Below are positions 1 to 39,069 of a stretch of 39,069 bases of DNA, piece by piece. The position numbers were made by a program, and so were the translations under genes. The stretch is taken from assembly GCA_964501035.1 (NCBI GenBank), contig CAZCRK010000010.1:1-39069 (forward strand), read 5' to 3'. The notes beneath the pieces are model-generated. The model ran no database searches, had not been told where the DNA came from, and saw only the letters and a list, made by a program, of their open reading frames with translations. Each line of letters begins with the position of its first letter. The stretch's first letter is position 1.

Positions 1-954
1 AAGAACGTTGATTAATCCATCTGAGTTTAAATCTGCTTGATTATCATTTTCATCATTTAAAATTAGATTAACAATCAGAATTACATCTTGCACATTTACA
101 GAACCATCGTGGTTTACGTCACCTAATATCTCATTCTCACATTCAACATTTGTCAAATATTTTGAAGATGAAATTGGAGTCTCTAGTAATAAAGAACAGT
201 TTGATAAATCTCCAAGTAAATAATTCTCTAACCATAAAAGGGCAGTTTCACCAACCTCGCCTTGACCTTCTAAGGGATTATTTGCAACAGAATGGTTTCC
301 ATTATCTATTTCAAACAATAACTTATGTGTATTTTCAGGTGTATAATCATAATGAACATCTGCATGAATTGAAGGAGGGGCTATGATATCTAACTCTCCA
401 CTAAAAATTAAAACTGGAACTTGATGATTTAAATCTTGAGACTGCAAATTTAAATTATCTAGCCAAGGGCAAAGTGCTATTACTGCCTTTAATGAAGGGT
501 CAATTACAGCTGCTAATTGTGCTCCACCTCCACCCATTGACCAACCACCAACAGCAAATTTATTAACATCAATGTTTGCATACAAAGGAGAACCTAATCT
601 AGTATTTTCTTGCCTTATTGTTTCTATGCCATCTAACAACGCATCTGCCCTAACATCAGGAGAATCCCATAATAAATTAGTACCAATAATCATTGAAATA
701 ATTCCATATGATGCTAAATATGGCCCCCATGATTCTACACTTGAAGGTAAAGTCATATAACCTGGAACAATTACTATACTGGCAAATGGACCTTCTGCAT
801 CTACCGGATAATAAAGTGATGCACCGGAATAATGTGGACCATTTCGTAACCCATCTGATTCATCAATAGAACTAACAGTATAAGGACCATTAGAAAACAA
901 CAAACCTGTTAAAACAAAACACAGTATAAACATTTTGTTAATCAATGTGTACAT
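1..954 (-). CDS. Secreted PETase/cutinase-like alpha/beta hydrolase with C-terminal dockerin-like domain (3' end outside window)
   Basis: Translated by hand; not in the ORF track. Open frame from ATG 954 (alternative ATG 933) to the edge. Hydrophobic N-terminus, VIVPGY, GGWSMGGGGA (Ser 538-540), LCPW, GELDIIAP (Asp 388-390), GNHSVAN (His 292-294), then GDVNHDGSVNVQDVILIVNLIL...ADLNSDGLINVL. Confidence 0.88.
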   Translation of the reverse strand, partial: MYTLINKMFILCFVLTGLLFSNGPYTVSSIDESDGLRNGPHYSGASLYYPVDAEGPFASIVIVPGYMTLPSSVESWGPYLASYGIISMIIGTNLLWDSPDVRADALLDGIETIRQENTRLGSPLYANIDVNKFAVGGWSMGGGGAQLAAVIDPSLKAVIALCPWLDNLNLQSQDLNHQVPVLIFSGELDIIAPPSIHADVHYDYTPENTHKLLFEIDNGNHSVANNPLEGQGEVGETALLWLENYLLGDLSNCSLLLETPISSSKYLTNVECENEILGDVNHDGSVNVQDVILIVNLILNDENDNQADLNSDGLINVL

Positions 955-1153
955 TTTTTATGCATAAATAGTGTTTCCAAAATTTATTTTAATATTTTTA
1001 ATCTTCATGTGCTAATCCTATTTCTTGTTTCTCTTAAAATCTACTCAAATTACAAATTAATTATTAAGTCTTTTTTGACTCATAACACTTGACTAGTTAC
1101 AAATTTAATACATTTCTAGAAAGAAATTTAACAAGTTAAATATATTAAATAAG

Positions 1154-1795
1154 TTACTTTTTCAGTGGGCTCGTCACTTCTACAGATTTAAATGTTTGAC
1201 TAAAAGAGGATTGAAGCAATGCTGCAATCTCAAATTGAGTTCCAAGCCAATGTTTTCTATTTTCATTACTAATTACTACAGGTTGACGTTTTTTGATATT
1301 ATGTATTTTTTCCATAAATGTATTTGCTGGTTGCGTTAATATTGAAACTGTATTTAAACTAATGTCATTTGTTTCATTTATCCATTCGGACCAAATTGCT
1401 CCAAATGTCATAATTTCATCGTTAGGAAGTGTAATATAGTGGCACTGTTTTCCAGTTGATGTAGATTCCCATTCATAAAATCCATCTGCAATGACTAAAC
1501 ATCGTTTATCTTTGATTGAATATTTAAATGATGGTTTTTCATACACCGTTTCACTTTTAGCATTGTACGTCATTTTTCGAATTTGCTCTGCTTTTTCCGT
1601 ACTTGTAACCCAATGTGGAATTAATCCCCAATTATATTGTTTGATTAAACCTGCTTCTGATGAAGTAATGACGGGAATTTTTGGATTGGTAAATGCTGAG
1701 AGATGTGTTTTGGGTTCAAAGTACGTTTCAAATACACCACCAATTTCCTTTTCAATTTGTTGTTGTTTTCGTGCAATCGCAATATTAAAACACAT
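1154..1795 (-). CDS. SOS response-associated peptidase (SRAP/YedK/HMCES family, abasic-site protein)
   Basis: True start is probably ATG 1795 (MCFN..., giving the family's Cys2), overlapping the umuC stop as TAATG. Motifs WGLIPHW, YNAKSET, RCLVIADGFYEW, IHN..RQPV. Confidence 0.92.
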   Translation of the reverse strand: MCFNIAIARKQQQIEKEIGGVFETYFEPKTHLSAFTNPKIPVITSSEAGLIKQYNWGLIPHWVTSTEKAEQIRKMTYNAKSETVYEKPSFKYSIKDKRCLVIADGFYEWESTSTGKQCHYITLPNDEIMTFGAIWSEWINETNDISLNTVSILTQPANTFMEKIHNIKKRQPVVISNENRKHWLGTQFEIAALLQSSFSQTFKSVEVTSPLKK

Positions 1796-3054
1796 TATGA
1801 TTTCACCCGTAATAAGTCTGTCATTCGTGTGGTATAGCATGGCGAAAGTCTTTCTTGTCGCAACTTCCATTTTCTTGCAAATCCATTAACACATAACCGT
1901 ATTTTCATTCGACCATATTCTTCATTAATATTATCTATTGCTTTCATTAGATGGTGTCGTTTTTCCACATCTTCAATATTATCAAAAAAAGTTAGTTGCA
2001 CCTTTGATTGAGGAATAATATCTGACATAATCACCCCCGCTCGTTTATAAATACAATCATTTCGATAAATCCCCCGCAAACCTTCAATTGCTTTGGTAAC
2101 AATTTCAAGTGAATCATTGGTCGGGGTGCTAAAATGTATTTTCCTTACACCGCTGTAATTTACTCTATATTCTTGTTTAAATGGGTTAGTTAGAATAAAA
2201 ACTGTCATTGTTTTTGCACAGCTTTTTTGTTTCCGTAACTTTGAAGCACACATAGACGCATATGTACTTAATGCTTGCGCCAACTGTCGGATATTATCTA
2301 CCTCTTGTCCAAATGTACGAGAGGTACAAATAGATTTTTTGGATTGTGAATTTATTTCCAAATTAAAACACGGTATTGCACGCAACTCTTTAACCATTTT
2401 CAACCCAACAATAGACATATGGTGCTGTATCCACTTGTCTGACCGTATTGTGAGGTCATATGCGGTGCGTATTCCATAAAATGATAACTTTTTAGCATAC
2501 TGCCGTCCCACTCCCCATAATTTTGCTAAAGGAAACTCCTTTAAAGAGTCACTAATTTGATTCATATCATCAAGTATAAATACTCCAGATTTCGTGGTAT
2601 GCTTGGCAAGATGATTTGCAACTTTTGACAATGTTTTAGTGGGAGCTATACCAATAGAAATTGGAATACCTGTATATTGAGTTACTTTTTTTCGAAGGTT
2701 CATTCCAAATAAGTGTATATTATCAATACCATTGCAATCTAAAAATGCCTCATCAATAGAGTATATCTCAATTTGCGGAACTTCTTTCGATAATATCGAC
2801 ATAACTCGTTGAGATAAATCACCATATAATGCAAAATTCGTAGAAAATACAAATACACCATTTTTATCAAATATATGTTTATTTTTGAATGCAGGTGCTC
2901 CCATTTCTATTCCCAATGCTTTTGCTTCATTAGATCGTGCAATGACACAGCCATCATTATTGGATAATACTACCACAGGTTTTTCTCGAATTGAAGGATT
3001 GAACACGCGCTCACAAGATGCATAGAAATTATTACAATCAGCAAGGGCAATCAT
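1795..3054 (-). CDS. umuC: Y-family DNA polymerase V subunit UmuC
   Basis: [32 protein letters not shown]-terminal [13 protein letters not shown]; directly downstream of umuD. Confidence 0.95.
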
Positions 3055-3446
3055 CGATACTTACGAATAGAATATGGTACAACACCCCAAATTTCAAAGT
3101 CCATTTCTGCCGTTACTTTTATTGGGTGATATTGGGAATTGTATGGAATTAATACGGGTTCATTATGGGCATGAGATAATTGCTTTACCGTAAACTCTCC
3201 GCAAATTAATGCAACCACGATATCCCCATCTTTAGCTGTAAGCGATCTATCAACAATAAGAATATCACCATCGTGAATTCCAATTTGCACCATTGAGTCT
3301 CCATTAGCATATGCCATAAATGTAGCAGATGGATTTCTGATAAGATATTTATCCAAGCTTATTGACAGGTCTGTAAAATCCTCTGCTGGAGAGGGAAACC
3401 CTGCTGGAATAAATGATATTTCTAATTGTTTTTCTATGATTTGCAT
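3051..3446 (-). CDS. umuD: DNA polymerase V subunit UmuD (S24 autopeptidase)
   Basis: AGFPSPA cleavage motif, GDSM catalytic Ser, FTVK catalytic Lys, IWGVV. ATG 3446 preferred over the track start 3497; ATGA overlap with umuC. Confidence 0.93.
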
Positions 3447-3452
3447 TATAAA

Positions 3453-3502
3453 TACTCGTATGTTACTCGTATATTTTACCAACCTTGTTAAATACAATGC
3501 AA
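3453..3502 (-). promoter_or_regulatory. Putative umuDC promoter with adjacent direct-repeat operator
   Basis: Minus strand TTGCAT (3502-3497), 18 nt spacer, TGGTAAAAT extended -10 (TAAAAT 3478-3473). Immediately followed by ATACGAGTA twice (3472-3464, 3461-3453). Confidence 0.5.
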
Positions 3503-3582
3503 GATATCCATTCTAAAGCTATACTTACAAATTGTTACGCTTTTCGATTTGGTAAATTCACAAATAATTCCGAACTTTGAGT

Positions 3583-4482
3583 ATGTTCAAAATCATAATT
3601 TATATATTAAATATTACAACTATATTTGGAATATCCTTACAAGATGCCTATAATTCTGCAGAACCTGCAGATGGGTATGACAAGTATGTAATGCTTGATG
3701 CAAATATTGTATATACTGGCGGATTGGGGTTATTTGAAGGCAATATTAAAATCGATGGCAATGGTGCCGTTATTGATTTGCAATCAGGTGGTGGAATTTG
3801 GGTATATGGTGAAGCAGCATATCCTTGTCATGTTGATATTCAGGAATGTTCAGTAAAAAATAGTGATTATTTTGGTATTAGTTATGCGGGAACGTCAACA
3901 GGCTCTATTATAAATTGTAATCTTATTGAAAATGACTTTGGGGTTAAATTGTTTGACTCAACACATGTTGTAATCAAAAATTGCAATTTTATATCGAATA
4001 CAACCTATGGTTTAGGTATCTACAGTGAAATCCCAATTGCTGAAATTTCGTACTGCAATGCATGGAATAACGGTGATGCGGATTATATAGAAAACTGCCC
4101 CAACTGAGGTAGCATTTGGACTCCGTTGGAGCCCCAACCTGGTGATGGTCTCATTTTTGAAGATCCACTTTTTATTAATGAGCATTTTTCTAATTATAAT
4201 TATTTAGCAAATTCTCCCTGTATTGACACAGGTGATCCGCTCAAATTAGATGCTGATAGTACACGTAGTGATATTGGCGCATTATATTTTGTTCAAACCA
4301 ATTATCAAGTTGGAGATTGCAACAATGATAATGCACTCAATGTAATAGATGTTATAACTATTGTTAACGATTGTATTTTGTCTGAACCCGGTGCAAATTG
4401 CGACTGTAGCGATGTTAACTTTGATGGTAATATAAATGTGATTGATGTCATCACCTTGGTTTCTATTATTTTAGAAAATTAA
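3583..4482 (+). CDS. Secreted right-handed beta-helix + dockerin protein with in-frame TGA (candidate CxxU selenoprotein; alternative: nonsense pseudogene)
   Basis: Track ORFs 3577-4107 and 4126-4482 are in the same frame, separated only by TGA 4105-4107 and six sense codons (ENCPN*GSIWTPLEPQPG). Beta-helix-like repeats (IINCNLIENDFGV, IKNCNFISNTTYGL) continue into DPLF...SPCIDTGDP...RSDIGAL, then a dockerin duplication. Confidence 0.75.
4108..4140 (+). promoter_or_regulatory. Candidate bacterial SECIS element
   Basis: TTGG(4116-19)-A-CTCC(4121-24)-loop GTT-GGAG(4128-31)-CC-CCAA(4134-37). 17 nt lie between the TGA and the apical loop, whose first base is G; locally GC-rich in an AT-rich gene. 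Confidence 0.55.
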
Positions 4483-27867: not shown

Positions 27868-29018
27868 TTAGAATTTCCTATTTTACTTGATACAATTTCT
27901 TGGGTAACAATATTCCCAAATTTATCCTTTTCAATCACTTCGTACTGAGCAGTTTTTGGATCAAAAATACTTTCAAACTCTCTAATTTTAGTATCTGAGT
28001 TACCTAAATACCATGATTCATTAATCAAATGGTTTTTCTCATCATAATCCATTAAAATGTTTCCAATAGAATACCCATTCATAGATTCAAATTGGTATGA
28101 TTCAATGAGACCATCTTCTGTGTAGAATATTTTTAATAAGTGATCATAATAATGAGGAACAAAACCGGGTGAAAATATATAATCAAAAAACCGATTTGAA
28201 ATTGAATTTTCTCCAAACCATGCTTTAAATTTTGGTATGCCGTTTACTGAATCTTGGAAGTAATCTAACAACCCATTTTGCTTGTACACATAAACACGCT
28301 TTAATACTGTAGAATCTAATTCACTTCCCCAATAAATACTGGAAACTCGACCATTATTATTGCGTAACACTCGCATACTATGATCAGGATCAATTTGATT
28401 TTTAAATAACTGCAAACCTTTCACTAAAGCGTTCATATCTTTATAATATTCGAAATCGACCTGAGGAGTCATATCAACCACTATATCTTCATTCTGTGTA
28501 ATAAACTCTTCAATTTCTTCTGAGAGTTCAGGACGTAAGTCACGTAAATAATATAAATAGTCTTTGTAGCTTTTTAATTTTAACCTATAATATTCATAGG
28601 TTTCAATATATTGCCGTTTGATTATATTTGCTTGAGTTTGAAATACATTTTTTTCTTTAGCTTTCTCTGACCAAGTTAAAGGTTTGTATGTATATTTTAA
28701 TTCCGGTTTATCACCAGCAATAATATAAGGTTCTTCTCCGAGTTCTTCTTCAAATTTTCTAATGTATTGAATAAACTTAACATCAATTTCATTAAACCGA
28801 GAATCTAGATATTTATGCTCTTCATAGATTGCATGTGCTACGGATTGGTAGAATTGATGTTTATCATTTTCAACATCAATTATATCTGCAATTTTTTCAA
28901 AATCTAAGAGATCATTAATAGATTCTTTTACTTCATCAACAAGATATGGGCTATCAACATTAACCGAAAACAATACAGTCAAAAAAACAAACCAAACTAA
29001 GTTGAATATCTTATTCAT
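27864..29018 (-). CDS. Hypothetical exported protein
   Basis: 384 aa, hydrophobic N-terminus, helical first half and Tyr/Gly-turn beta-hairpin-like second half; ATGA overlaps on both sides. Confidence 0.65.
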   Translation of the reverse strand: MNKIFNLVWFVFLTVLFSVNVDSPYLVDEVKESINDLLDFEKIADIIDVENDKHQFYQSVAHAIYEEHKYLDSRFNEIDVKFIQYIRKFEEELGEEPYIIAGDKPELKYTYKPLTWSEKAKEKNVFQTQANIIKRQYIETYEYYRLKLKSYKDYLYYLRDLRPELSEEIEEFITQNEDIVVDMTPQVDFEYYKDMNALVKGLQLFKNQIDPDHSMRVLRNNNGRVSSIYWGSELDSTVLKRVYVYKQNGLLDYFQDSVNGIPKFKAWFGENSISNRFFDYIFSPGFVPHYYDHLLKIFYTEDGLIESYQFESMNGYSIGNILMDYDEKNHLINESWYLGNSDTKIREFESIFDPKTAQYEVIEKDKFGNIVTQEIVSSKIGNSK

Positions 29019-30613
29019 CGAAGAATTTCATTTACAATTAATACTATATCAATTACATTTATAATCATATCACTATTTCCATCAGCGATGCAATACTGGG
29101 TATCGGTAAAATTTACTTCATCTAAAATATAATTGACAACCATTACAATATCTATTACGTTTAAAACTAAATCTTGATTTACATCACCATTTGGTGTGCA
29201 TTCATTTTCAACAAAATTCGTTGAACCTGGCGTACCATAATCGCCATTTGACATTAACTGTATCGATGTAGACCAGTTTTCACCATTATCATTTTCAGTG
29301 GCAATATCTATCAATTGTATGCTTGCGCCCGTTGGGTCGGGAAACGTTGAACCATTATCGTATGCAACACAATCAATCATTTCTCCAGAAGGAATTCCAA
29401 TGCATACTTCATCCCAAGAATTACTCAAGAAAAAATTTGAATACTTATAATCTACAGAAATATTTCCGTTTAAAGCAGTGTTGTCTTCAATACCCAATAC
29501 AATAAACTCATTTGGGGCTAAATTTAAACTTCCACCATTCTGAATTTGATGGTAATCTTCACCTGTATCGTATATCGTAAGTCCATTAAGATCAATAATA
29601 TCACTCCCAATATTAGTTAACTCAAACCACTCTCCATATGAGTCCGATACAGCTTGGGGGTTTTGCATAATTTCATTAATGATAAGCCCTGTTGGAGCTT
29701 CAATTTGTTGAAGTACAATCGACCAATTAACTGGACGATGGTCTGAAATATTGGTTTGATATGATGAACTACCAATATAATTATCTAATCGAATAGTTTG
29801 AATATCACTATCGTCAACATATTCCATAAGTGAAGATGAAATCAAAATATGGTCTATAAATGAATTAGTCCCCCACGGATGACTATTATAGTAATTATTA
29901 TTTGCAATTGGGGTAGTTGTAAAATACATTTCATTCGAGTCAACCAATGGCCAAAGTGAGTTATTTGATTGAGAGTTTGTTATCTCATCATTAAAATCAC
30001 CTGCAACTATCACATGATTTGGACTTTGATTTTCAATGTAATTTGCTAAAATTTCTGAAGCAAGTAACCTACGTTCAAATCCATCATTACAACATTTAAA
30101 ATGCACATTTATTATTTGTGTGCTTAATGAAGAGGTTCCACATCCCCACTGTATATTCACCATTAGGGGATTACGATACGCAAACTCCCAACCGTCATAA
30201 GGGAATAATGTTTGGGTATTTGTAATAGTTACACAATCTGAACGCACAGCGATAGCTAAATCATATCCAGAATATCCACCATCAGCTTCGTAGTCAGTAT
30301 GAACAAATTCATAGGCAGGCAAATTGTTTGCTAAATTGTTCAAACTACTTAACTGGCTAACTTCTTGAATTGCAATAACATCAGGTAGCATATCAGTTAT
30401 AATTTCTTGCACATAACTAATTGTATTGGATGTTGCAGGAAATTCTCGAATGTTCCATGTCATAACTTCTAGCCCATTCCAGTTATTTACTACAGGAATA
30501 TTCCAATTATTTTGCATGGGATTTATAGACAGTGTATCAGTTGGTGGGCATTCCTGTGCTATAACTACACTTGCTAAAAGGAAATAAATAATATGGTTAC
30601 ATAATTTTCGCAT
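29015..30613 (-). CDS. Secreted EEP (DNase I-like) nuclease/phosphatase + lamin-tail domain + dockerin
   Basis: TWNI, IAIQEV, AGDFND, IDHILIS, SDHRPV; LTD motifs LIINEIMQNP, GEWFELTN, GTPGSTN; dockerin GDVNQDLVLNVIDIV...ADGNSDMIINVIDIV. Confidence 0.88.
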   Translation of the reverse strand: MRKLCNHIIYFLLASVVIAQECPPTDTLSINPMQNNWNIPVVNNWNGLEVMTWNIREFPATSNTISYVQEIITDMLPDVIAIQEVSQLSSLNNLANNLPAYEFVHTDYEADGGYSGYDLAIAVRSDCVTITNTQTLFPYDGWEFAYRNPLMVNIQWGCGTSSLSTQIINVHFKCCNDGFERRLLASEILANYIENQSPNHVIVAGDFNDEITNSQSNNSLWPLVDSNEMYFTTTPIANNNYYNSHPWGTNSFIDHILISSSLMEYVDDSDIQTIRLDNYIGSSSYQTNISDHRPVNWSIVLQQIEAPTGLIINEIMQNPQAVSDSYGEWFELTNIGSDIIDLNGLTIYDTGEDYHQIQNGGSLNLAPNEFIVLGIEDNTALNGNISVDYKYSNFFLSNSWDEVCIGIPSGEMIDCVAYDNGSTFPDPTGASIQLIDIATENDNGENWSTSIQLMSNGDYGTPGSTNFVENECTPNGDVNQDLVLNVIDIVMVVNYILDEVNFTDTQYCIADGNSDMIINVIDIVLIVNEILR

Positions 30614-30655
30614 ACTATAATTTACGACAACAAGGATAAGATGTTACTATGACAA

Positions 30656-32578
30656 TTACTTAATGGGAAATGATAACATTACAGGCAAATGGTCTGAAAT
30701 ATATGTCTCATAGATTTCAAAGCTACCCATGTAATCTGCCATTGGAAGTGTTTGTACAAAATAATCTGAATTTGGCTCAACCAGTGAATTTGACACTAAA
30801 ATATGATCCAAAAAACTCACATAGGGTTCTTTGGGGTAAGATGCTTGACTTATATCAAACGTTATATCCCATGTTGGGAAAAAATATGCATTATCATCTA
30901 AAAATGGTTGAAAACAATGTTCAGTTGGGTCATCTTTCAAATCATCATTCCAATCACCCAATACAATAAAATGAGTCCCATCCTTTTCTGCTTCATCTGA
31001 TACATACTCATGTAGTGATTTCACTGCTTTTTGACGTCTAGATAATCCAGAATTACAACATTTCATGTGTAGATTAATGACAGAAAATGGAAGTTGATTG
31101 TCCCCATCATTATAAATAAAATCTGTTCGCATAGGTGGTCTTCCAGCAAAATTATAATCACTTTCAGAAAATGGTTCTACAATCCGTTCGAGTGTAAACA
31201 AATTTTTCTTGAATATTATCGCTTGGTCCATAAATGAGGATTGTTTGGACACTTCAAAGCTATATTCAGGTAGTAATTTTATTAATTTACTAAACCACCC
31301 GGTACGTTTAATTTCCTGAAATGCAATAATATCTGCTGAAAAATCATGAACAGCCTCAGCTAGTGCAAGAATTGTAGAATCATTGGCATGTGGGAAAAAT
31401 TCACAATTCCAAGTTAATATCTCAATATTTTGCTCAGAATCAAGATTGGGGAAATCCCAATTATCAAATTGAAATTCACTGAATTCATTCTTTAAAACTT
31501 CAGTAGAATTAATTTCATTCTTCGAATGATAATAGGTTTCTAATGCAGTTTCCTGTTTTTCCCGTATCCATTTCAAATCCTGAAAGTTGGGCTGGAAATT
31601 ATCTGCTAATAATGATTGGCTTACGTCACCATCAATTTCAGTTTCAACACCTAATAACATATGAGATTCAGCATCAATTGTTAATTTCAGATGGGTAAAT
31701 GAATTCCCATAATTTTGCATTGTATAAACATGGGAAAATGGATCATACCAAAGTGACCTATACCCTTTGGAGTTTCCACCAGTAACAATTAAATCAGCCC
31801 CCTGGGCAAAATACCCCATTTCGATTGCATTTAATGATGTATTATTGACATCTTTAGTATCTAGATCACTCAAAAACTCTTCATAAACCTTTTCTCTTTC
31901 CCATGGGATACCAGCGCTGGTAAGCACAACTATCACTTCAGCTCCTTTTTTGCGCAAAATGGGTATCCATTTTTCAAGAGTTGGTTTTTCGTAATCTAAT
32001 GTAATATTTCGTAGATTTTCATTAAGAACTAATTCTGGAATTTCAGAATGGACAACTCCTAATATTCCTACTTTAACACCTTTTATATCCTTAATTATAT
32101 AGGGTTTAAAATTTTGAGATGTTAATGGGCAATTATTACACTCTACATTTGCACCAACAAAAGGGAAATTGGCAGTGTTTATGAGTGTATTTAAATTATT
32201 AACTCCCGATATAAAATCGTATCGAGCTGGAACCACTGCATCATATTGAATTCTATTGAACCATTCAATCATACTTTGTCCATTATCAGCCATTCCAAAG
32301 GGAGTACCTTGAAAAAAATTACCACCATCAAGTAATAAAACACCTTCATTATGATTGATTGCTTCTTCCCGAATATCATCAACATATTTTGAAAAACCTG
32401 CTCCACCCACCATATCAGGTGGATACTCTGGATTCATCCAGTAAGCCTTATCCTCAGTAATGGCACCATGAATATCATTTGTAGTAATAAGGTGAATATT
32501 AATTGTTTGCTCGGAGTTGGACAAACAAAATGAACTCATTAATATTGAAAGAAATAGATTTGAAAATTTGAATTGCAT
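30656..32578 (-). CDS. Fusion of a degenerate 5'-nucleotidase-type metallophosphoesterase domain and an EEP nuclease domain
   Basis: N-terminal TTNDIHG, LLDGGNFFQGT, ANFPFVGAN, PYIIKDIKGVKVGILG; C-terminal TWNCEFF, AFQEI, LGDWND, LDHILVS, SDHLPV. Start ATG 32578 or 32587. Confidence 0.85.
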   Translation of the reverse strand: MQFKFSNLFLSILMSSFCLSNSEQTINIHLITTNDIHGAITEDKAYWMNPEYPPDMVGGAGFSKYVDDIREEAINHNEGVLLLDGGNFFQGTPFGMADNGQSMIEWFNRIQYDAVVPARYDFISGVNNLNTLINTANFPFVGANVECNNCPLTSQNFKPYIIKDIKGVKVGILGVVHSEIPELVLNENLRNITLDYEKPTLEKWIPILRKKGAEVIVVLTSAGIPWEREKVYEEFLSDLDTKDVNNTSLNAIEMGYFAQGADLIVTGGNSKGYRSLWYDPFSHVYTMQNYGNSFTHLKLTIDAESHMLLGVETEIDGDVSQSLLADNFQPNFQDLKWIREKQETALETYYHSKNEINSTEVLKNEFSEFQFDNWDFPNLDSEQNIEILTWNCEFFPHANDSTILALAEAVHDFSADIIAFQEIKRTGWFSKLIKLLPEYSFEVSKQSSFMDQAIIFKKNLFTLERIVEPFSESDYNFAGRPPMRTDFIYNDGDNQLPFSVINLHMKCCNSGLSRRQKAVKSLHEYVSDEAEKDGTHFIVLGDWNDDLKDDPTEHCFQPFLDDNAYFFPTWDITFDISQASYPKEPYVSFLDHILVSNSLVEPNSDYFVQTLPMADYMGSFEIYETYISDHLPVMLSFPIK

Positions 32579-32580
32579 TT

Positions 32581-33240
32581 TTACCATTTACCGTACATTG
32601 GATTAGGAAAAATAAATTTATTTAATCCCCAAACATAGTTATCATTTTCTGGAAAATCACCCATTGCATCCCCAAAATATGCTAACACTTGATAACTACC
32701 ATATTCACTCATTCGATTTGTACCATCTAACACTTCTTGACGTCTAATATATTTTTTATCTGATTTGTTTTGACGTAGTAGATAGATGTCTGATTTATGA
32801 CCAACCTTCAAATTTAACATGTTTACACGTGTTGCATCCGTTCTATCAGCCATTCTATTGCTTATAAACACAAATCTGCAATCAGGAATGGTCCTCATGC
32901 TATCAATAAATGCTTTTGCACCTGGGACTAAACTTGCTTCAGCTCTATTCACCCAATCTGCCCAACTTTCCATATTGAAGGATTCCCCTTTTTCAACAAG
33001 TTCAACTTGGTATTGAGAATTATCCAATACTGTTTCATCAAGATCCATGACAATCACCCAATCACTGTTCTGATGTTGAGCTTTTGATTTCAAAGATTTC
33101 CAAGCAGTTTGATACGTCTGCTCACAAATTGAAGAATATTCAGTTGAATTTCTCACCCACCGTATATCATTGGGAAGCTTATCTTCGGTAAAGAGTAATG
33201 TAGTTGAAAAAATGAAAATTGAAACTATAAACCTTATCAT
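32581..33240 (-). CDS. Class C acid phosphatase / 5'-nucleotidase, e(P4) family (HAD)
   Basis: DLDETVLDNS, VPGA, FISNR, FGDAMGDF, FPNPMYGKW. Confidence 0.92.
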   Translation of the reverse strand: MIRFIVSIFIFSTTLLFTEDKLPNDIRWVRNSTEYSSICEQTYQTAWKSLKSKAQHQNSDWVIVMDLDETVLDNSQYQVELVEKGESFNMESWADWVNRAEASLVPGAKAFIDSMRTIPDCRFVFISNRMADRTDATRVNMLNLKVGHKSDIYLLRQNKSDKKYIRRQEVLDGTNRMSEYGSYQVLAYFGDAMGDFPENDNYVWGLNKFIFPNPMYGKW

Positions 33241-34520
33241 AATAGATAACCTACTGAAAGAAGTATTGATAAATTTGATTCTCTAACCATATCTAAATCT
33301 TGTCTTAAGTCACCCTCAACCTTAAACACATCAGGATAATTATAGGTTTGCAGAGAATATGTTCCTGCAATTTCTAATGTTAACTTACCAATGTTTCTAC
33401 CAAATCCAGCTGTAAAGGTACTTTCCGGAGACAGTGCTTTAAACGGGTTTGTTTTATATGTTAAACCCGATCGAATTGCAAGGGAATTTGGGAGTCTATA
33501 TTCAAATCCAATTCCAATTTTTTGAGTATTTTGTATCCACGGGGACAGATTTGAGTAAATTGCTTTTGAATATTGGAATGTTAACTCAATTGGATAACTG
33601 CCTTTGGGTAAAAATGAAACTCCTAGGGAAAATATTTCGGGTTTATAAAATACTGGTGCAATACTATCCAGTAAATGTATTTGATAGTTGGTATCAGGTT
33701 CCCAGTATAATGGTAAGTAAGAAAGTGTATCTAACACAATATTTACATCAGTATCAATCCCAGATTCATATATTACATTCATTTTAACTTCATTAAATAT
33801 GACTTGAGTGCTTACTGTATTAAAATTATAGGAAGGAACTGTCCAACTAGTATCCAGTGGAGCAATATCAGCAATATTCATCGTATCAGAGTCAATTACA
33901 TCATATCCCATTGTTTCATATACAATAGTTTTGTCAGTGATGTGTTGACTTAATCCAACTTGTAATGAAAATTCATTTGTTTTTAAGACTTCAAGCCCAA
34001 CACCAGCAGAAAGAACATTAATCGTTCCATTTCTGTTATAAATATGATAACCAATTAATGGATCTTTGATACCAATCTCCCCATCCTCTAAACTCTTACT
34101 ACCCCGAACTTCTTCTTCATAATAATAATCATATGAAGTTAATGGGTTATACCCAATTGACACAGTACCTAAATTCAAGATATGATACATAAAACCAAAA
34201 GAAAAATCACTAAATTTATTTCGATTTGAGACATAATCTGCTTCAGTCAAATAATCATCAAAACTATCTTTAACTATTAAACTTCTCCGTTCTAGATAGG
34301 AATTTGAATGTAAATTAAAATCAAACGATATTCCCTTTATTTGCGATAATGATGCTGGATTGGTTAATACAAGTTGTGACGATAGCGAATTAAAATGTGT
34401 ATTTCCCATTGACACGGATTTAGCTGAGCCAGTTTCTGCTAATTCTCCAATTGTACGATTAAAAAAACTCTGTGCTGATAACATTGAGCACATGAATAAA
34501 ATTATTAATTTATAATGCAT
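33237..34520 (-). CDS. FadL/PorV-like outer-membrane beta-barrel
   Basis: Signal peptide, SAKSVSMG...NPASL hatch-like motif, IGIGFEY...AIRSG, FTAGFG, ends LSVGYLL. Confidence 0.7.
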   Translation of the reverse strand: MHYKLIILFMCSMLSAQSFFNRTIGELAETGSAKSVSMGNTHFNSLSSQLVLTNPASLSQIKGISFDFNLHSNSYLERRSLIVKDSFDDYLTEADYVSNRNKFSDFSFGFMYHILNLGTVSIGYNPLTSYDYYYEEEVRGSKSLEDGEIGIKDPLIGYHIYNRNGTINVLSAGVGLEVLKTNEFSLQVGLSQHITDKTIVYETMGYDVIDSDTMNIADIAPLDTSWTVPSYNFNTVSTQVIFNEVKMNVIYESGIDTDVNIVLDTLSYLPLYWEPDTNYQIHLLDSIAPVFYKPEIFSLGVSFLPKGSYPIELTFQYSKAIYSNLSPWIQNTQKIGIGFEYRLPNSLAIRSGLTYKTNPFKALSPESTFTAGFGRNIGKLTLEIAGTYSLQTYNYPDVFKVEGDLRQDLDMVRESNLSILLSVGYLL

Positions 34521-37158
34521 AATCTACCTGTATTCTAAAATCTGTATTTTCTCCACTGACATAAGGATTATGTAGCCAATTTCCAGCATCCGTTTGCCCC
34601 TCTGTAACACGCGTTGAAGGTGCATCTATTGAATGACTAAACTTAAACCTGACTGTCATGAATTCAACGGGTTTAACATTAAAGGAAATCCAATTATGAA
34701 ATGACCCTGATTCACTATTAAAAATTCTAAAATCTGTATCCTCAAAATACCATAAAAATCCACTTATAAACACTGAACCTGCTTTTAATGTAAAACGACT
34801 ATCAAAGTGATGCTCAAAACTCACACCAATTGATTCATCTGGTGCACCAATATCGCCCACCATCATTTCACTTCCATAAGGGTTATCTGTTAAACGTGGT
34901 CTCGGTGAAAAAGTAGTATAACCATTTGAGTAAAGTAATTCAATTTTATTGTATTTTGACATTCTCATTTGTATTCTTAATCGTGTTTCACGAGAGTAAA
35001 ATGGACTCGGATGCTGGATATCATTTTCACCTCTTGCTTGCCATTTTTGTCTAAGATTTATACGATAATTAAAAACTGGTCTCCAAGTGAGTGATACAAC
35101 ATTTCTGAAATATTTTGCATTATCTGCTTTTCTATTCCAAACGTCAATATTAAATGTTGCTGTCAATGATCGATAAAATTGATACCTGCCAGAAAAAAAG
35201 ACTCCTTCCTCAGCTTGTGGTTGAGGATTTCCTGAGTATAAATATGAATAAACTGGATCTTCAAGCCAATAACTATCTTCAAAAATAGACGTTTTATATC
35301 TTTGATAATTTGAAAATGATCGTTGATAGGGGTTGTCATAACCAATATCATAATCTCTATAAAGTAGAAGAAAATTTAAATTACTAAACTGAAAGAATGA
35401 GCTAACTACAACGGCTTTTGGATTAACTTCATTGTCTTTCGTGAGTTCTCCATATTCACCCTGAAAAGAAACATTTCCTATTACTGTTGAAAAATCAAAA
35501 CCTGTAACCCGCCTAAAAGATTGCGCTTTATCCCATAAAGGAGATTGACCGTTAGATTCATACATTGCAGCAATTTCCGGGTCAGCTGAATTTGTCATAT
35601 ATGAGTTATAATATGCATCACCCGAATAATTATCATAATCAGAAGCATCAAGTTCTGGGTTGTTATCATCCGCCCCACCTGTAATAGTTTCTATCACCTG
35701 TGGAATAAGCCGCCTGTCGTACAGACTTTCATAAAAAGTAAATCCAATTCTTGTGTTTATTGTTGGAGTAAATCTTATGTTACCACCCCATGTTACTTCT
35801 TCCACAGATTCTGTTAACTTATGAAATATTTTTGTTGTATCTCCATTTACACCAAAGGGTAGCCTTGGCTGCATGGTAATCAAAGTCGTAAAACTTGGAA
35901 TGGTGTCTAATATACCATTATTGTCAAAATCTTCAAAAAATTCTGAATCATCCCATTGATTATTATTATCGGTATCAATGAATGGTTCAGTTTCATCCCA
36001 TTGACCGTTTTCATTTAAGTCCGTGTAGAATTCTGCTGAATCCCACTTCCCATTTTCATTTGCATCAATGTAAGGCTCCACATCATCATTAATTATTGCA
36101 TCTCGATAATGTTTTGAAACAAACATTGACACGCGTAAAAATGAATTTGAAAATTGTGAGGCAATTCCATCCATTACAAATTGGCTTGAGCGAGTTAAAT
36201 CCGAATAAATGCCATCCTGTCGTTTTGAAAAACCAAAACCTGTACGACGAGGACTAAAGTAATCACTACTTTCAAAAATTACACCTTGACCAAATGAAGC
36301 TGTAAAATTTCCAATAACCAATTTATCTAACTTTGCTCCTAATAAATCTACATTTTCAATTGATAATGATCTTTTTTCAGTAGAAATATTGGATGGATTT
36401 CCAAGGTGTTTATATTGCAATAATCCCGCACTTAAATTCTGACCATAATTCATTGATAGTCTATGAAACAGTTCAGGGTGAGAAGGGTCTAAAAATTGAG
36501 ATGTTGCTCCTTCTTCATCTGGGCTTGTTGTTGTGGGAACAGTTCTAACTAAGTTTGTAAATCGCCAATGGAACTCAGAGTTTGATACGCCTTCATCACT
36601 TGGAAAACGTATAAAATCAATTAAGTTTTTATACCCCCAGCGACTTAATCCTGGTGCATTTTTCAACTGAAAATCACCCTCTATTTTTCCCATTTTTTGT
36701 TGTTTTAGAACAGCTACAACATCAATCGGACTCAAATTTGGAAGTGCACTTAACTCATCAAAAGACATTTTATTAATATCACGTGGATCATAAAACCTAT
36801 CTAACCAAAAATCAGATAATCCTTCAGTATTACCTTCATCTGAAAGCCACTGATCTACTTTGTAAGAAGACCTTTTTAAGTTTGCAATAAACTCCGAATA
36901 CTCTTTATGACCTATTACAATATATGGTTTTATATTATAAACATCCTCTGCAGAAATCCCATGTGCATCTAGCAACTCATAAATATTAGATATGCTCCCA
37001 ACTTTTAACAGATAATTTTCAATTTGGGTGATTTTTGATTCACTAAGTGGTAATTGCATCAATTCGCTATGAGAGGCAAAATTAATATCAATTAAAATTT
37101 GATTTTCATTTGCAATTAAAAAGCAAAATGTAAAAAACCATAGATATATTTTACTCAT
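34510..37158 (-). CDS. ComEA-like helix-hairpin-helix outer-membrane beta-barrel protein with acidic Ca-binding-like repeats
   Basis: IDINFASHSELMQLP and DINKMSFDELSALPNLS (HhH_3-like), VIGNFTASFGQGVIF, long amphipathic C-terminal strands ending RIQVDYAL. Confidence 0.75.
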   Translation of the reverse strand: MSKIYLWFFTFCFLIANENQILIDINFASHSELMQLPLSESKITQIENYLLKVGSISNIYELLDAHGISAEDVYNIKPYIVIGHKEYSEFIANLKRSSYKVDQWLSDEGNTEGLSDFWLDRFYDPRDINKMSFDELSALPNLSPIDVVAVLKQQKMGKIEGDFQLKNAPGLSRWGYKNLIDFIRFPSDEGVSNSEFHWRFTNLVRTVPTTTSPDEEGATSQFLDPSHPELFHRLSMNYGQNLSAGLLQYKHLGNPSNISTEKRSLSIENVDLLGAKLDKLVIGNFTASFGQGVIFESSDYFSPRRTGFGFSKRQDGIYSDLTRSSQFVMDGIASQFSNSFLRVSMFVSKHYRDAIINDDVEPYIDANENGKWDSAEFYTDLNENGQWDETEPFIDTDNNNQWDDSEFFEDFDNNGILDTIPSFTTLITMQPRLPFGVNGDTTKIFHKLTESVEEVTWGGNIRFTPTINTRIGFTFYESLYDRRLIPQVIETITGGADDNNPELDASDYDNYSGDAYYNSYMTNSADPEIAAMYESNGQSPLWDKAQSFRRVTGFDFSTVIGNVSFQGEYGELTKDNEVNPKAVVVSSFFQFSNLNFLLLYRDYDIGYDNPYQRSFSNYQRYKTSIFEDSYWLEDPVYSYLYSGNPQPQAEEGVFFSGRYQFYRSLTATFNIDVWNRKADNAKYFRNVVSLTWRPVFNYRINLRQKWQARGENDIQHPSPFYSRETRLRIQMRMSKYNKIELLYSNGYTTFSPRPRLTDNPYGSEMMVGDIGAPDESIGVSFEHHFDSRFTLKAGSVFISGFLWYFEDTDFRIFNSESGSFHNWISFNVKPVEFMTVRFKFSHSIDAPSTRVTEGQTDAGNWLHNPYVSGENTDFRIQVDYAL
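35905..36078 (-). repeat. Four 15-aa acidic repeats E-[PF]-[YF]-x-D-x-[ND]-x-N-[GN]-x-W-D
   Basis: EPYIDANENGKWDSA / EFYTDLNENGQWDET / EPFIDTDNNNQWDDS / EFFEDFDNNGILD. Confidence 0.85.
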
Positions 37159-38039
37159 TAAAAGCGATATCCAATATTATATTGATGTGTTATTGGAAGA
37201 GTTGGGTGGGATAATATTCCATACGAAAAGTTTACACCAACCATATGCAATTCTAAACCTACTCCAATTCGATTTGGGTTGGACTGGGTTCCTACACGAA
37301 ATAATACAAATTGGTTTAATGTGTATTCAACGCCAGCTTTTATCTGCTTATCTTTTTGACCAAGCGTTCGTTCTAAGGCTAATGACGTTACAACATTCTG
37401 GTACGGTATGAGCGAAATACCAGCATTTATTTTACGAGGTAAAGGTTGAGATGACATACCTCTTCCAATTTCAGGGGAATTAACATTTGTCATACATACA
37501 CCAACCCTGTATTTATCTCGTAATACAGCTAGTAAACCAATATCAACACCTATAGCCGATAAACTTCCAGATGTTAATCCATCACTTCCGTCACCACTCT
37601 GTCCAGCGGATTTACCTAAATTCCAATCAAGGAAATGTAAGGTGTAACCAAATGAAAGTTTTGAATTTCTATCCTTTTGTATATAGATTCCGTGACTCAA
37701 TCCAATATTCTGCTCGGATGATAAAGTATTGTCTCCATAGTTCACACTCATTTCTTGAACTGAAAACCCAAACGTCCCAACTTGGGAAACATTTAATGAA
37801 ATAGCAAAATGAGAAAAGGGTAAAAATGATAAATTAAATATATTTGTAAACCCAACTGACAACTCGTTTGATTCAATTTCTGTTAGTCCAGCAGGGTTAT
37901 GAAAAACACTATTGACATCCCCTTTGTTTGCTACCATAGAGCCAGATAATGCAGTTGCTTTTGCTCCAATATATGAATAATCACTCACAACTTGTGAAAA
38001 TGAAATATTTACAATTATGATTAAAATTAGTTTTTTCAT
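37158..38039 (-). CDS. PorV/PorQ-like outer-membrane beta-barrel
   Basis: GAKATALSG...SVFHNPAGL, GVDIG, NVNSP, AGVEY....FRVG, YGILSHPTLPITHQYNIGYRF. Confidence 0.75.
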   Translation of the reverse strand: MKKLILIIIVNISFSQVVSDYSYIGAKATALSGSMVANKGDVNSVFHNPAGLTEIESNELSVGFTNIFNLSFLPFSHFAISLNVSQVGTFGFSVQEMSVNYGDNTLSSEQNIGLSHGIYIQKDRNSKLSFGYTLHFLDWNLGKSAGQSGDGSDGLTSGSLSAIGVDIGLLAVLRDKYRVGVCMTNVNSPEIGRGMSSQPLPRKINAGISLIPYQNVVTSLALERTLGQKDKQIKAGVEYTLNQFVLFRVGTQSNPNRIGVGLELHMVGVNFSYGILSHPTLPITHQYNIGYRF

Positions 38040-39069
38040 TAGTGAGATACCCCCACAACAATTGGCGCTGAATCTGTTGCAGTTTCACCAGTCGTAAAAT
38101 TCATGGTTTCAATATGCATAATATAGGTTCCTGGGGATACAATTTGTCCTAAGTGGTCACGTCCATCCCATGAGGATGAATTTTCATTATTTGTGACTAC
38201 ACCACCATCTGAATAATATTGATCAATCAATGATGTTATAAATTGTCCATTTAAATTATAAATTCTAACAATTACTCTCGAGTTTGATGAAAAAGAATAT
38301 GTAAAATCTAATCGTTCATCTAATGTTGGAATAATTATAAATGGAGCTGGAGAAATAGTTGTATCAACAGATTCATCGTTTTCAAATTCTCCTTCACCAT
38401 CAATCACTTCTAAAATTGAAATATCTTCTTCATATTCAACGACTACTTGCCAGTCACTGAAAATATCCAATTCATTGCCATTTCGACAATATACATCTAA
38501 TGTGCCCGATATTTGAATTATATACCTTCCAAAAGGACCTTCTGTGATGTCACTTAAACTAGTTTGTAAAATATCAAATCCATCTTGGTAAGAACTGCTC
38601 TCAGGCCAAACAACAAATGCAATCCTGTACCCATTGTCATCTTCTAATGTGAAGCTGTAAGGTCCGTTACTTCCTGTAATATCATAGAAATCTACAACAG
38701 TTCCAGTAATTGAAACTTGAGTATTAACCAAGGGACAATCTGCAGGGTTAGCTAAATCATAATTTCCATCACACGTAATTACATCAACCTCACAATTATT
38801 GATTATTGAAAGAAACGAAAGTGTACAACTCCCATCATCAATTTCAGCACTGGGGTCATAATTCGGAGCATAAGGGTCAGTACAACCCATTGATACTAGT
38901 GAAATAACCTCCCATGACTCCCTAAAGTTTTCACTGGTTTCGTCATGTCCAGATAATCCATTTCCGTCTGACAAGATTTCGTCTATTTCCTCTAAACTAG
39001 ATACTCTTGAAAAAGCATAATAGTCTTCATGAGATGTTTCAAAATACAATTGGTCTTCAGCTGGAGTAT
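38039..39069 (-). CDS. Large secreted protein, C-terminal part: Cys/Asp linker motif, OB-fold-like domain, FlgD-Ig/T9SS-CTD-like domain (5' end outside window)
   Basis: Frame stays open to the right edge (..TPAEDQLYFETS..). GCTDPYAPNYDPSAEIDDGSC; VSITGTVV...FTLEDDNG...IQISGTLDVY; VRIYNLNGQFITSL...WDGRDHLGQIVSPGTY. Confidence 0.72.
   Translation of the reverse strand, partial: TPAEDQLYFETSHEDYYAFSRVSSLEEIDEILSDGNGLSGHDETSENFRESWEVISLVSMGCTDPYAPNYDPSAEIDDGSCTLSFLSIINNCEVDVITCDGNYDLANPADCPLVNTQVSITGTVVDFYDITGSNGPYSFTLEDDNGYRIAFVVWPESSSYQDGFDILQTSLSDITEGPFGRYIIQISGTLDVYCRNGNELDIFSDWQVVVEYEEDISILEVIDGEGEFENDESVDTTISPAPFIIIPTLDERLDFTYSFSSNSRVIVRIYNLNGQFITSLIDQYYSDGGVVTNNENSSSWDGRDHLGQIVSPGTYIMHIETMNFTTGETATDSAPIVVGVSH

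Follow-up and report, generated by a model that had tools for sequence, protein, structure and literature searches.

The closest described relatives of the enzyme reported here are PET27 from Aequorivita sp. CIP111184 and PET30 from Kaistella jeonii, both from Bacteroidota. They are promiscuous esterases that act on pNP C6-C8 esters, PCL, BHET and Impranil and, slowly, on PET, with PET activities 4.7- and about 253-fold below that of IsPETase (PMC8767016). In 2022, the same work counted 47 Marinimicrobia among 98 FCB homologs of the two enzymes. Both the clade and the fact that Marinimicrobia have members of it were thus already published, and the novelty that a first-pass annotation of our locus had implied for the enzyme is not supported. 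The text and supplement of that paper, as far as they could be searched, mention neither dockerins nor cohesins.

The clostridial cellulosomes have type I dockerins with duplicated calcium-loop repeats, as does the system described here, and carry cellulases as their cargo. They are anchored to the cell by SLH domains or by sortase. In the present case, in contrast, the host is Gram-negative, the anchoring is predicted to depend on type IX secretion (T9SS), and the cargo is rich in peptidases and esterase. Ca. Stygibacter (Cloacimonadota) is also a Gram-negative member of the FCB group, and PMC8542988 describes for it, from genomes only, proteins composed of a signal peptide, an enzyme and a C-terminal dockerin, S8 and C25 peptidases included, as well as cohesin scaffolds with a T9SS-type C-terminal domain. 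It differs in having few enzymes and one scaffoldin of 3,755 aa with CBMs, and in its origin from an anoxic lake, whereas the host here has a 1.9-Mb marine genome with 60 dockerin proteins, an esterase among the cargo and a conserved adaptor with a single cohesin. For Marinisomatota (Marinimicrobia, SAR406, Fidelibacterota), no dockerin system is found among the publications listed, whose coverage ends at subscription journals. The string “Marini” is absent from the accessible main text of the cellulosome survey PMC11557425, the accessible text of PMC13188925 does not mention dockerins, and the publications that join dockerin, PETase and metagenomics are, among the matches listed and in the parts available, engineering studies or reviews. 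The cohesin-dockerin system of Marinisomatota is apparently undescribed.

The window that we analyzed (the whole stretch of DNA, 39,069 nucleotides) is the start of contig C10 in a Marinisomatota genome (Marinimicrobia, Fidelibacterota) of 1.87 Mb, 33.8% GC and 95.7% completeness. The first-pass annotation had placed an unlisted open reading frame at 954..1. This frame is real, translates from the reverse strand into 318 aa without a stop, and is still open where the contig ends; this probably explains its absence from the ORF track.

1..954, reverse strand: esterase of the PET27/PET30 clade, ending in a dockerin; the contig holds 318 of its 330 codons and lacks the 3' end
892..954, reverse strand: predicted Sec signal peptide, residues 1-21 (by eye: Lys7, a hydrophobic core, a small residue before the mature start)
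139..891, reverse strand: PETase-family alpha/beta hydrolase domain, residues 22-272 (PF12740; model matches 7PZJ)
757..759, reverse strand: Tyr66, oxyanion hole and aromatic clamp, Phe80 in PET27 and PET30 (PMC8767016, Table 3)
538..540, reverse strand: nucleophile Ser139 in G-W-S-M-G-G-G-G, aligned to S153 of PET30
463..465, reverse strand: Trp164, aromatic clamp, Tyr178 in PET30 and Trp178 in PET27
388..390, reverse strand: catalytic Asp189, aligned to D198 of PET30
292..294, reverse strand: catalytic His221, aligned to H230 of PET30
139..198, reverse strand: Cys253 and Cys272, predicted C-terminal disulfide, aligned to C262-C285 of PET30 (PMC8767016)
1..126, reverse strand: type I dockerin, residues 277-318, two repeats of calcium-binding type (Pfam), the last 12 residues lying beyond the contig and present in P0002

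The database protein P0002 is 100% identical to the esterase over their overlap and has 12 extra C-terminal residues, which complete the second dockerin repeat, so that the full protein has 330 aa with nothing after the dockerin. Contigs from two of the four runs examined, from two other studies, cover bases 1-3600 without a break, with 9 and 11 differences and with the esterase frame intact. As these independent contigs span the region without a frame break, the fusion of esterase and dockerin is not a mis-assembly. According to the alignment, homologs have N-termini similar to that of the esterase. A 16-codon ORF at 958-1008 on the reverse strand, with AGGA upstream, shares the reading frame of the esterase, and a single codon separates its stop from the esterase ATG; it may be a chance occurrence.

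The catalytic domain matches the PETase profile PF12740 (E 1.7e-48, residues 21-260, 165.8 bits against a curated cut-off of 28), and its model has the alpha/beta hydrolase fold of 7PZJ and IsPETase. The earlier reading of the protein as a PETase-fold serine hydrolase with a dockerin, predicted to be secreted, is supported. The residues then singled out (Y66, W138, S139, M140, W164, D189, H221, S222 and the late cysteines C253 and C272) are all in place, and the offset of 21 to IsPETase numbering holds for the Tyr, the Trp-Ser-Met and the Trp; it is 17 for the Asp (D206 in IsPETase) and 16 for the His (H237). Alignment to PET30 shows the Ser-Asp-His triad with its G-x-S-x-G to be intact. C253 and C272 are both invariant in the homolog alignment A1; the other cysteines of the esterase are C12 and C162.

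The choice of IsPETase as the reference is not supported. Over the catalytic domain, the esterase is identical to PET27 at 152 of 246 positions (62%) and to PET30 at 143 of 246 (58%), and the best solved match by sequence is 7PZJ, the structure of PET30 (E 5e-91, the next match 8e-46), whereas IsPETase structures reach 33-35% identity in the fold search; the esterase therefore belongs with PET27 and PET30 and not with IsPETase. When the esterase is aligned to the proteins of K. jeonii and Aequorivita CIP111184, the residue numbers given in PMC8767016 are recovered. The AlphaFold model (mean pLDDT 86, alignment of 23 rows), whose dockerin region is of low confidence (pLDDT 53-71), likewise has 7PZJ as its best fold match (TM 0.89 by target length, rmsd 2.0, 55% identity). 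The model also shares its fold with IsPETase (6EQE, 5XG0 and others), at a TM of 0.88 by target length and an rmsd of 2.4-2.5. A PDB search with alignment A3 gave hydrolases only, among the 60 matches listed, and was thus uninformative for the dockerin.

The identity to PET27 and PET30 exceeds the 50% taken as the limit for their clade, and the esterase shares with them the triad, the GWSMGGGG motif, an H-x3-H segment, a single C-terminal disulfide, and Gly and Val at the positions of the missing active-site disulfide. It also shares their layout of an N-terminal signal and a C-terminal targeting module. The module itself differs: the T9SS (PorC) sorting domain of the clade is absent from the esterase, and a dockerin takes its place, as the complete C-terminus of P0002 shows. 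By sequence, the esterase is a PET27/PET30-type enzyme in which the T9SS tail is replaced by the standard dockerin tag of the host. From IsPETase, it differs further in lacking the active-site disulfide and the M5 element discussed below, in its dockerin tail and in an acidic catalytic domain (30 D+E against 8 K+R).

The binding sites of PET30 and PET27 read Phe-Met-Tyr or Phe-Met-Trp, and that of the esterase reads Tyr-Met-Trp; it also has Ile191 instead of their Thr200, and a 5-residue insertion after W164. All six ligand contacts listed in PMC8767016 (Y66, W138, M140, W164, I191 and H221) are as in IsPETase, a combination found in only 4 of 101 homolog rows. The Tyr-Met-Trp site, with W138 just before the nucleophile and I191, a loop after the catalytic His that aligns without gaps to the type II enzyme 7CWQ, and the origin of the DNA (the runs holding most of the stretch are, where labelled, seawater or brine metagenomes) would all suit an efficient marine PETase adapted to plastic, with a dockerin that helps it to attack the polymer. 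We consider this reading highly improbable. Residue 197 is a His, as in PET27, PET30 and 7CWQ, at what we take to be the position of IsPETase S214. The active-site disulfide of the IsPETase type (type IIb) is missing, as had been noticed before: its positions are G186 and V223 in the esterase and Cys at both in 7CWQ, and they correspond to G195 and V232, the positions without a disulfide in PET30 (PMC8767016).

The M5 motif of PMC12224614, which marks functional PETases there, requires DxDxR(Y)xxFxC downstream of the final helix in addition to the elements of M4. In the esterase, judged by residues rather than by exact spacing, this element is absent, with no DxDxR and no FxC; the M4 elements PGY, GWSMGGGG and the triad are present. 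It is thus M4 at best, and none of the M1-M4 enzymes degraded PET, according to that paper. The filter is not absolute, since PET27 and PET30 also fail M5 and nevertheless show some PET activity (PMC8767016). Conversion of PET30 to Tyr-Met-Trp (F80Y and Y178W) abolished its activity on BHET and PET (PMC8767016), which makes the IsPETase-like contact set weak evidence of activity. An adaptation to plastic is further opposed by the age and divergence of the family, with paralogs at 35-53% identity across several families, and by the genome, in which no ring-hydroxylating dioxygenase alpha subunit (an aromatic dioxygenase, for terephthalate use) was found in a search with 4 of 14 controls positive. 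MHETase/tannase (PF07519) gave 0 matches in a search whose controls were blank too. Because the active-site disulfide and the M5 motif are absent, strong PET activity of the esterase is unlikely. Measurable but low PET activity is conceivable, although we lean slightly against it, and given the six IsPETase-like contacts, the activity may be better than that of PET27. The original caution that motifs alone do not show PET activity is well taken.

Homologs of the esterase occur in 29 of the 61 genomes of the order, with 25 of 36 genomes in the family (one of these marginal), and in 14 of 251 genomes sampled across the phylum at E <= 1e-30; they are often diverged paralogs. The host of the esterase belongs to Marinisomatota, unlike those of PET27 and PET30. 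After thinning of rows more than 80% identical (from 220 to 103), unrooted trees place the esterase, with moderate support, among the Marinisomatota rows that have dockerin tails and outside the flavobacterial cluster of PET27 and PET30 (SH-aLRT 97 in the quick tree; 91/86 in a careful second tree of 65 rows, from which unnamed non-dockerin proteins were left out). The split between the phyla has a support of only 67/78, in an unrooted tree. A recent transfer of the esterase from Bacteroidota may have occurred, but is not supported by these sequences. In the same-genus genome G001, in which the neighboring SRAP gene lies at a contig end, the esterase was not found.

Some Marinisomatota paralogs (L090, L091, L092, L094, L167, L168 and L172-L177) keep the triad, but have the Met after the nucleophile replaced by Ile, Gln, Tyr, Leu or Thr, and their clamp residues are replaced as well, which suggests a diversification of substrates within the family. 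Two rows titled Paceibacteria and Latescibacterota (L037 and L068) are flavobacterial-looking homologs with T9SS tails and possibly represent mis-binned contigs.

The dockerin of the esterase matches Dockerin_1 (PF00404; E 1.1e-5, 26 bits against a cut-off of 22.9, residues 277-316) and consists, complete in P0002, of two calcium-loop repeats (DxNxDxxxNxxD), each followed by a helix, as in type I dockerins. Its Asp and Asn positions are invariant or nearly so across 51 rows. The first-pass annotation took this tail to be unusual. In its lineage, it is commonplace: the host genome has 62 dockerin matches in 60 ORFs, and among the homologs of the esterase itself, 22 of 23 Marinisomatota rows carry a dockerin, the 23rd being cut by its contig end. 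The dockerin is therefore not special to the esterase. Among the 77 other homolog rows, nearly all titled Bacteroidota, no dockerin tail is found and 69 have the T9SS-tail motif; of 11 further rows from the same class as the host, 8 have the dockerin at their C-terminus, and the remaining 3 have a T9SS tail there.

Within the host genome, the dockerin is at the end of the frame in 45 of the 60 ORFs; 10 go on to a domain of about 100 residues and then a T9SS tail, and 5 have other tails. Most of these ORFs begin, by eye, with a signal-peptide-like stretch. Peptidases are the largest named group, with 16 of the 56 proteins scanned (six C25, four S8, two M14, and C10, M1, M6 and trypsin types), next to nucleases, a phosphatase, two arylsulfotransferases and a deiminase. 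No glycoside hydrolase was matched by Pfam at E <= 1e-5 among these 56, and the dockerin-bearing cellulases and hemicellulases of a canonical cellulosome are not found among them. The esterase is likely to be one ordinary enzyme of a cellulosome-like surface kit rather than a specialized plastic eater.

Candidate partners of the dockerins are encoded in the same genome, in which three ORFs contain, between them, four cohesin domains that pass the Pfam cut-off. One of the three is a cohesin-LRR-dockerin protein; the other two are as follows.

C9:2-6577: protein of at least 2192 aa with two Pfam cohesins, six by iterated profile, its C-terminus beyond the contig
C29:10171-10932 (L137:3181-3933): adaptor of 248 aa with signal peptide, Cohesin and Por_Secre_tail, located between murA and trkA

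The genome thus has at least three cohesin proteins, and one of them, the adaptor, is conserved: near-full-length orthologs, at 40-81% identity, are present in 48 of the 61 genomes of the order. It is absent from all 8 genomes of family f5, and the 5 misses outside f5 are in genomes that are 61-81% complete. The f5 genomes have 0-2 dockerin matches each, against 7-87 in the other 53, a co-occurrence that amounts to one family-level contrast, hence one event, and not to a statistical test. The top five Foldseek matches of the adaptor model (mean pLDDT 73) are cohesin modules, with non-cohesin beta-sandwich proteins next at similar E-values; its N-terminal domain is best matched by cohesins from the non-cellulosomal cohesin-dockerin pairs of C. 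perfringens glycoside hydrolases (2W1N, 2JH2, 2VO8; TM 0.69-0.76 by target length). The domain of about 100 residues that links the dockerin to the T9SS tail is similar to the cohesin-like profile, with an hhalign probability of 85%, so that, judging by the profiles, the adaptor looks like a free-standing form of the cohesin-like domain and T9SS tail of these dockerin proteins.

An iterated profile found 34 cohesin-like domains in 17 ORFs and 0 matches on reversed ORFs, a count to be read as an upper bound only: Pfam confirmed none of the extra cohesin-like ORFs tested (7 of 7), and an independent profile found only 8 such domains besides the adaptor, which leaves the scaffold capacity uncertain. 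Four secreted proteins that are large, acidic and rich in Cys, each of them truncated at a contig end (C9:2-6577, C55:3304-10923, C87:3-3026 and C130:410-2212), have 4-6 cohesin-like repeats each by the iterated profile, of which Pfam passes only the two C9 domains.

The imbalance between 60 dockerin proteins and only 4 Pfam-confirmed cohesins would be explained if the dockerin were a stand-alone calcium-binding or self-associating tail of non-cellulosomal nature, without a cohesin partner. Its recognition positions also speak for this: in both repeats across the 51 rows they are mostly VL, IL or VQ, and the hydrophobic VL and IL are unlike the ST pair of C. thermocellum. So do P0034 and P0105, unnamed proteins that fall among the Bacteroidota rows, which are examples of a few with a dockerin-like tail. 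We nevertheless think a partnerless dockerin very unlikely, in view of the cohesin folds present in the genome and of the adaptor, whose conservation follows that of the dockerins across families. The uniformity of the recognition residues, moreover, fits one shared partner.

If the dockerins bind cohesins, the question arises where they do so. The genome has parts of a T9SS, namely SprA, 4 PorV-family genes over the cut-off and 36 ORFs with a T9SS tail. The SprA match (C12:25206-31834) falls into two open frames, of 1487 and 857 aa, either because the gene itself may be split or through a possible error of assembly. The genome also encodes two secretins, PilM-Q-like genes, two secretion ATPases and six pilin-like ORFs, and the esterase has no T9SS tail of its own. 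The dockerin enzymes could accordingly stay in the periplasm or leave it through a secretin of the type IV pilus or type II kind, with partners that are periplasmic or otherwise outside the T9SS, while the adaptor has another job; a cohesin-like protein with a lipoprotein-like N-terminus, as judged by eye (C55:2684-3241), would fit such an arrangement. We regard it as unlikely, since the T9SS tails on orthologs of the esterase, in Bacteroidota as well as in 3 rows from Marinisomatota, suggest that the enzyme works outside the cell, and since ten proteins join a dockerin, the cohesin-like domain and a T9SS tail in a single chain. A further possibility, which we think distinctly unlikely, is that this abundant marine phylum forms a natural surface complex of many enzymes, in which dozens of hydrolases without a T9SS signal, the polyesterase with its IsPETase-like binding site included, bind the small adaptor in the periplasm and ride with it through the type IX pore. 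It would amount to piggy-back export and to the first natural cohesin-docked PET-active enzyme, mirroring the engineered cohesin-dockerin displays of PETase.

The window contains further genes of note.

1154-3497, reverse strand: umuD-umuC-SRAP mutagenesis cassette, immediately upstream of the esterase and in the same orientation
3577-4482, forward strand: beta-helix and dockerin frame, listed as two ORFs that form one frame split by the TGA at 4105-4107
29015-39067, reverse strand: cluster of a T9SS-tailed protein, a PorV-family gene, an 882-aa helix-hairpin-helix protein, an e(P4) acid phosphatase, a 5'-nucleotidase and a dockerin-tagged nuclease

The umuD-umuC-SRAP stretch is found as 82% identical DNA in a same-genus genome, and the SRAP gene is present in 2 of 5 genomes tested, with no link to the esterase shown. 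SOS co-regulation with this cassette was considered and rejected: promoter-like sites occur at the level of chance (3 against 2.7), and no terminator was found. The cluster at 29015-39067 looks, from its gene content, like a locus for scavenging extracellular DNA and nucleotides.

In the split frame at 3577-4482, the TGA is part of the motif C-P-N-(TGA)-G. One TGA is likewise found in each of the 32 full-length matches, which come from 31 of the 41 genomes searched, and in 12 of 12 loci examined it is at the same CxxU position and followed by a similar short hairpin. The host genome has tRNA-Sec and SelB. Apart from the dockerin, the frame matches no NCBIfam family. It is likely to represent an unnamed family of secreted selenoproteins with beta-helix, CxxU and dockerin.

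Together, the data suggest to us that the esterase is probably a promiscuous enzyme, exported by Sec, bound to a cohesin through its dockerin and acting at the cell surface on natural esters and polyesters. In this model, Sec would export the esterase, and its calcium-loaded dockerin would bind a cohesin protein. Type IX secretion would hold the cohesin proteins at the cell surface, and the esterase would be displayed there beside peptidases, nucleases and phosphatases with the same tag, which would break down organic particles. With a substrate range that we take from PET27 and PET30, it would cleave natural esters and aliphatic polyesters, and PET would be at most a side activity.

As a PETase lead, the esterase is modest, but it can be tested at low cost and adds to a clade of which only two members are active on PET. 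It has by nature the Tyr-Met-Trp site that inactivated engineered PET30, and so offers a test of motif-based prediction of activity. Its main value is as an entry point to the cohesin-dockerin system of Marinisomatota, in which dozens of secreted hydrolases appear to be marked by a dockerin and a conserved adaptor composed of a cohesin and a T9SS tail appears to be maintained. If the binding is true, enzyme display would gain a new cohesin-dockerin pair that is orthogonal to others, and a phylum of the oceans that is largely uncultured would use a cellulosome-like apparatus to digest protein, nucleic acid and ester polymers in particulate form.
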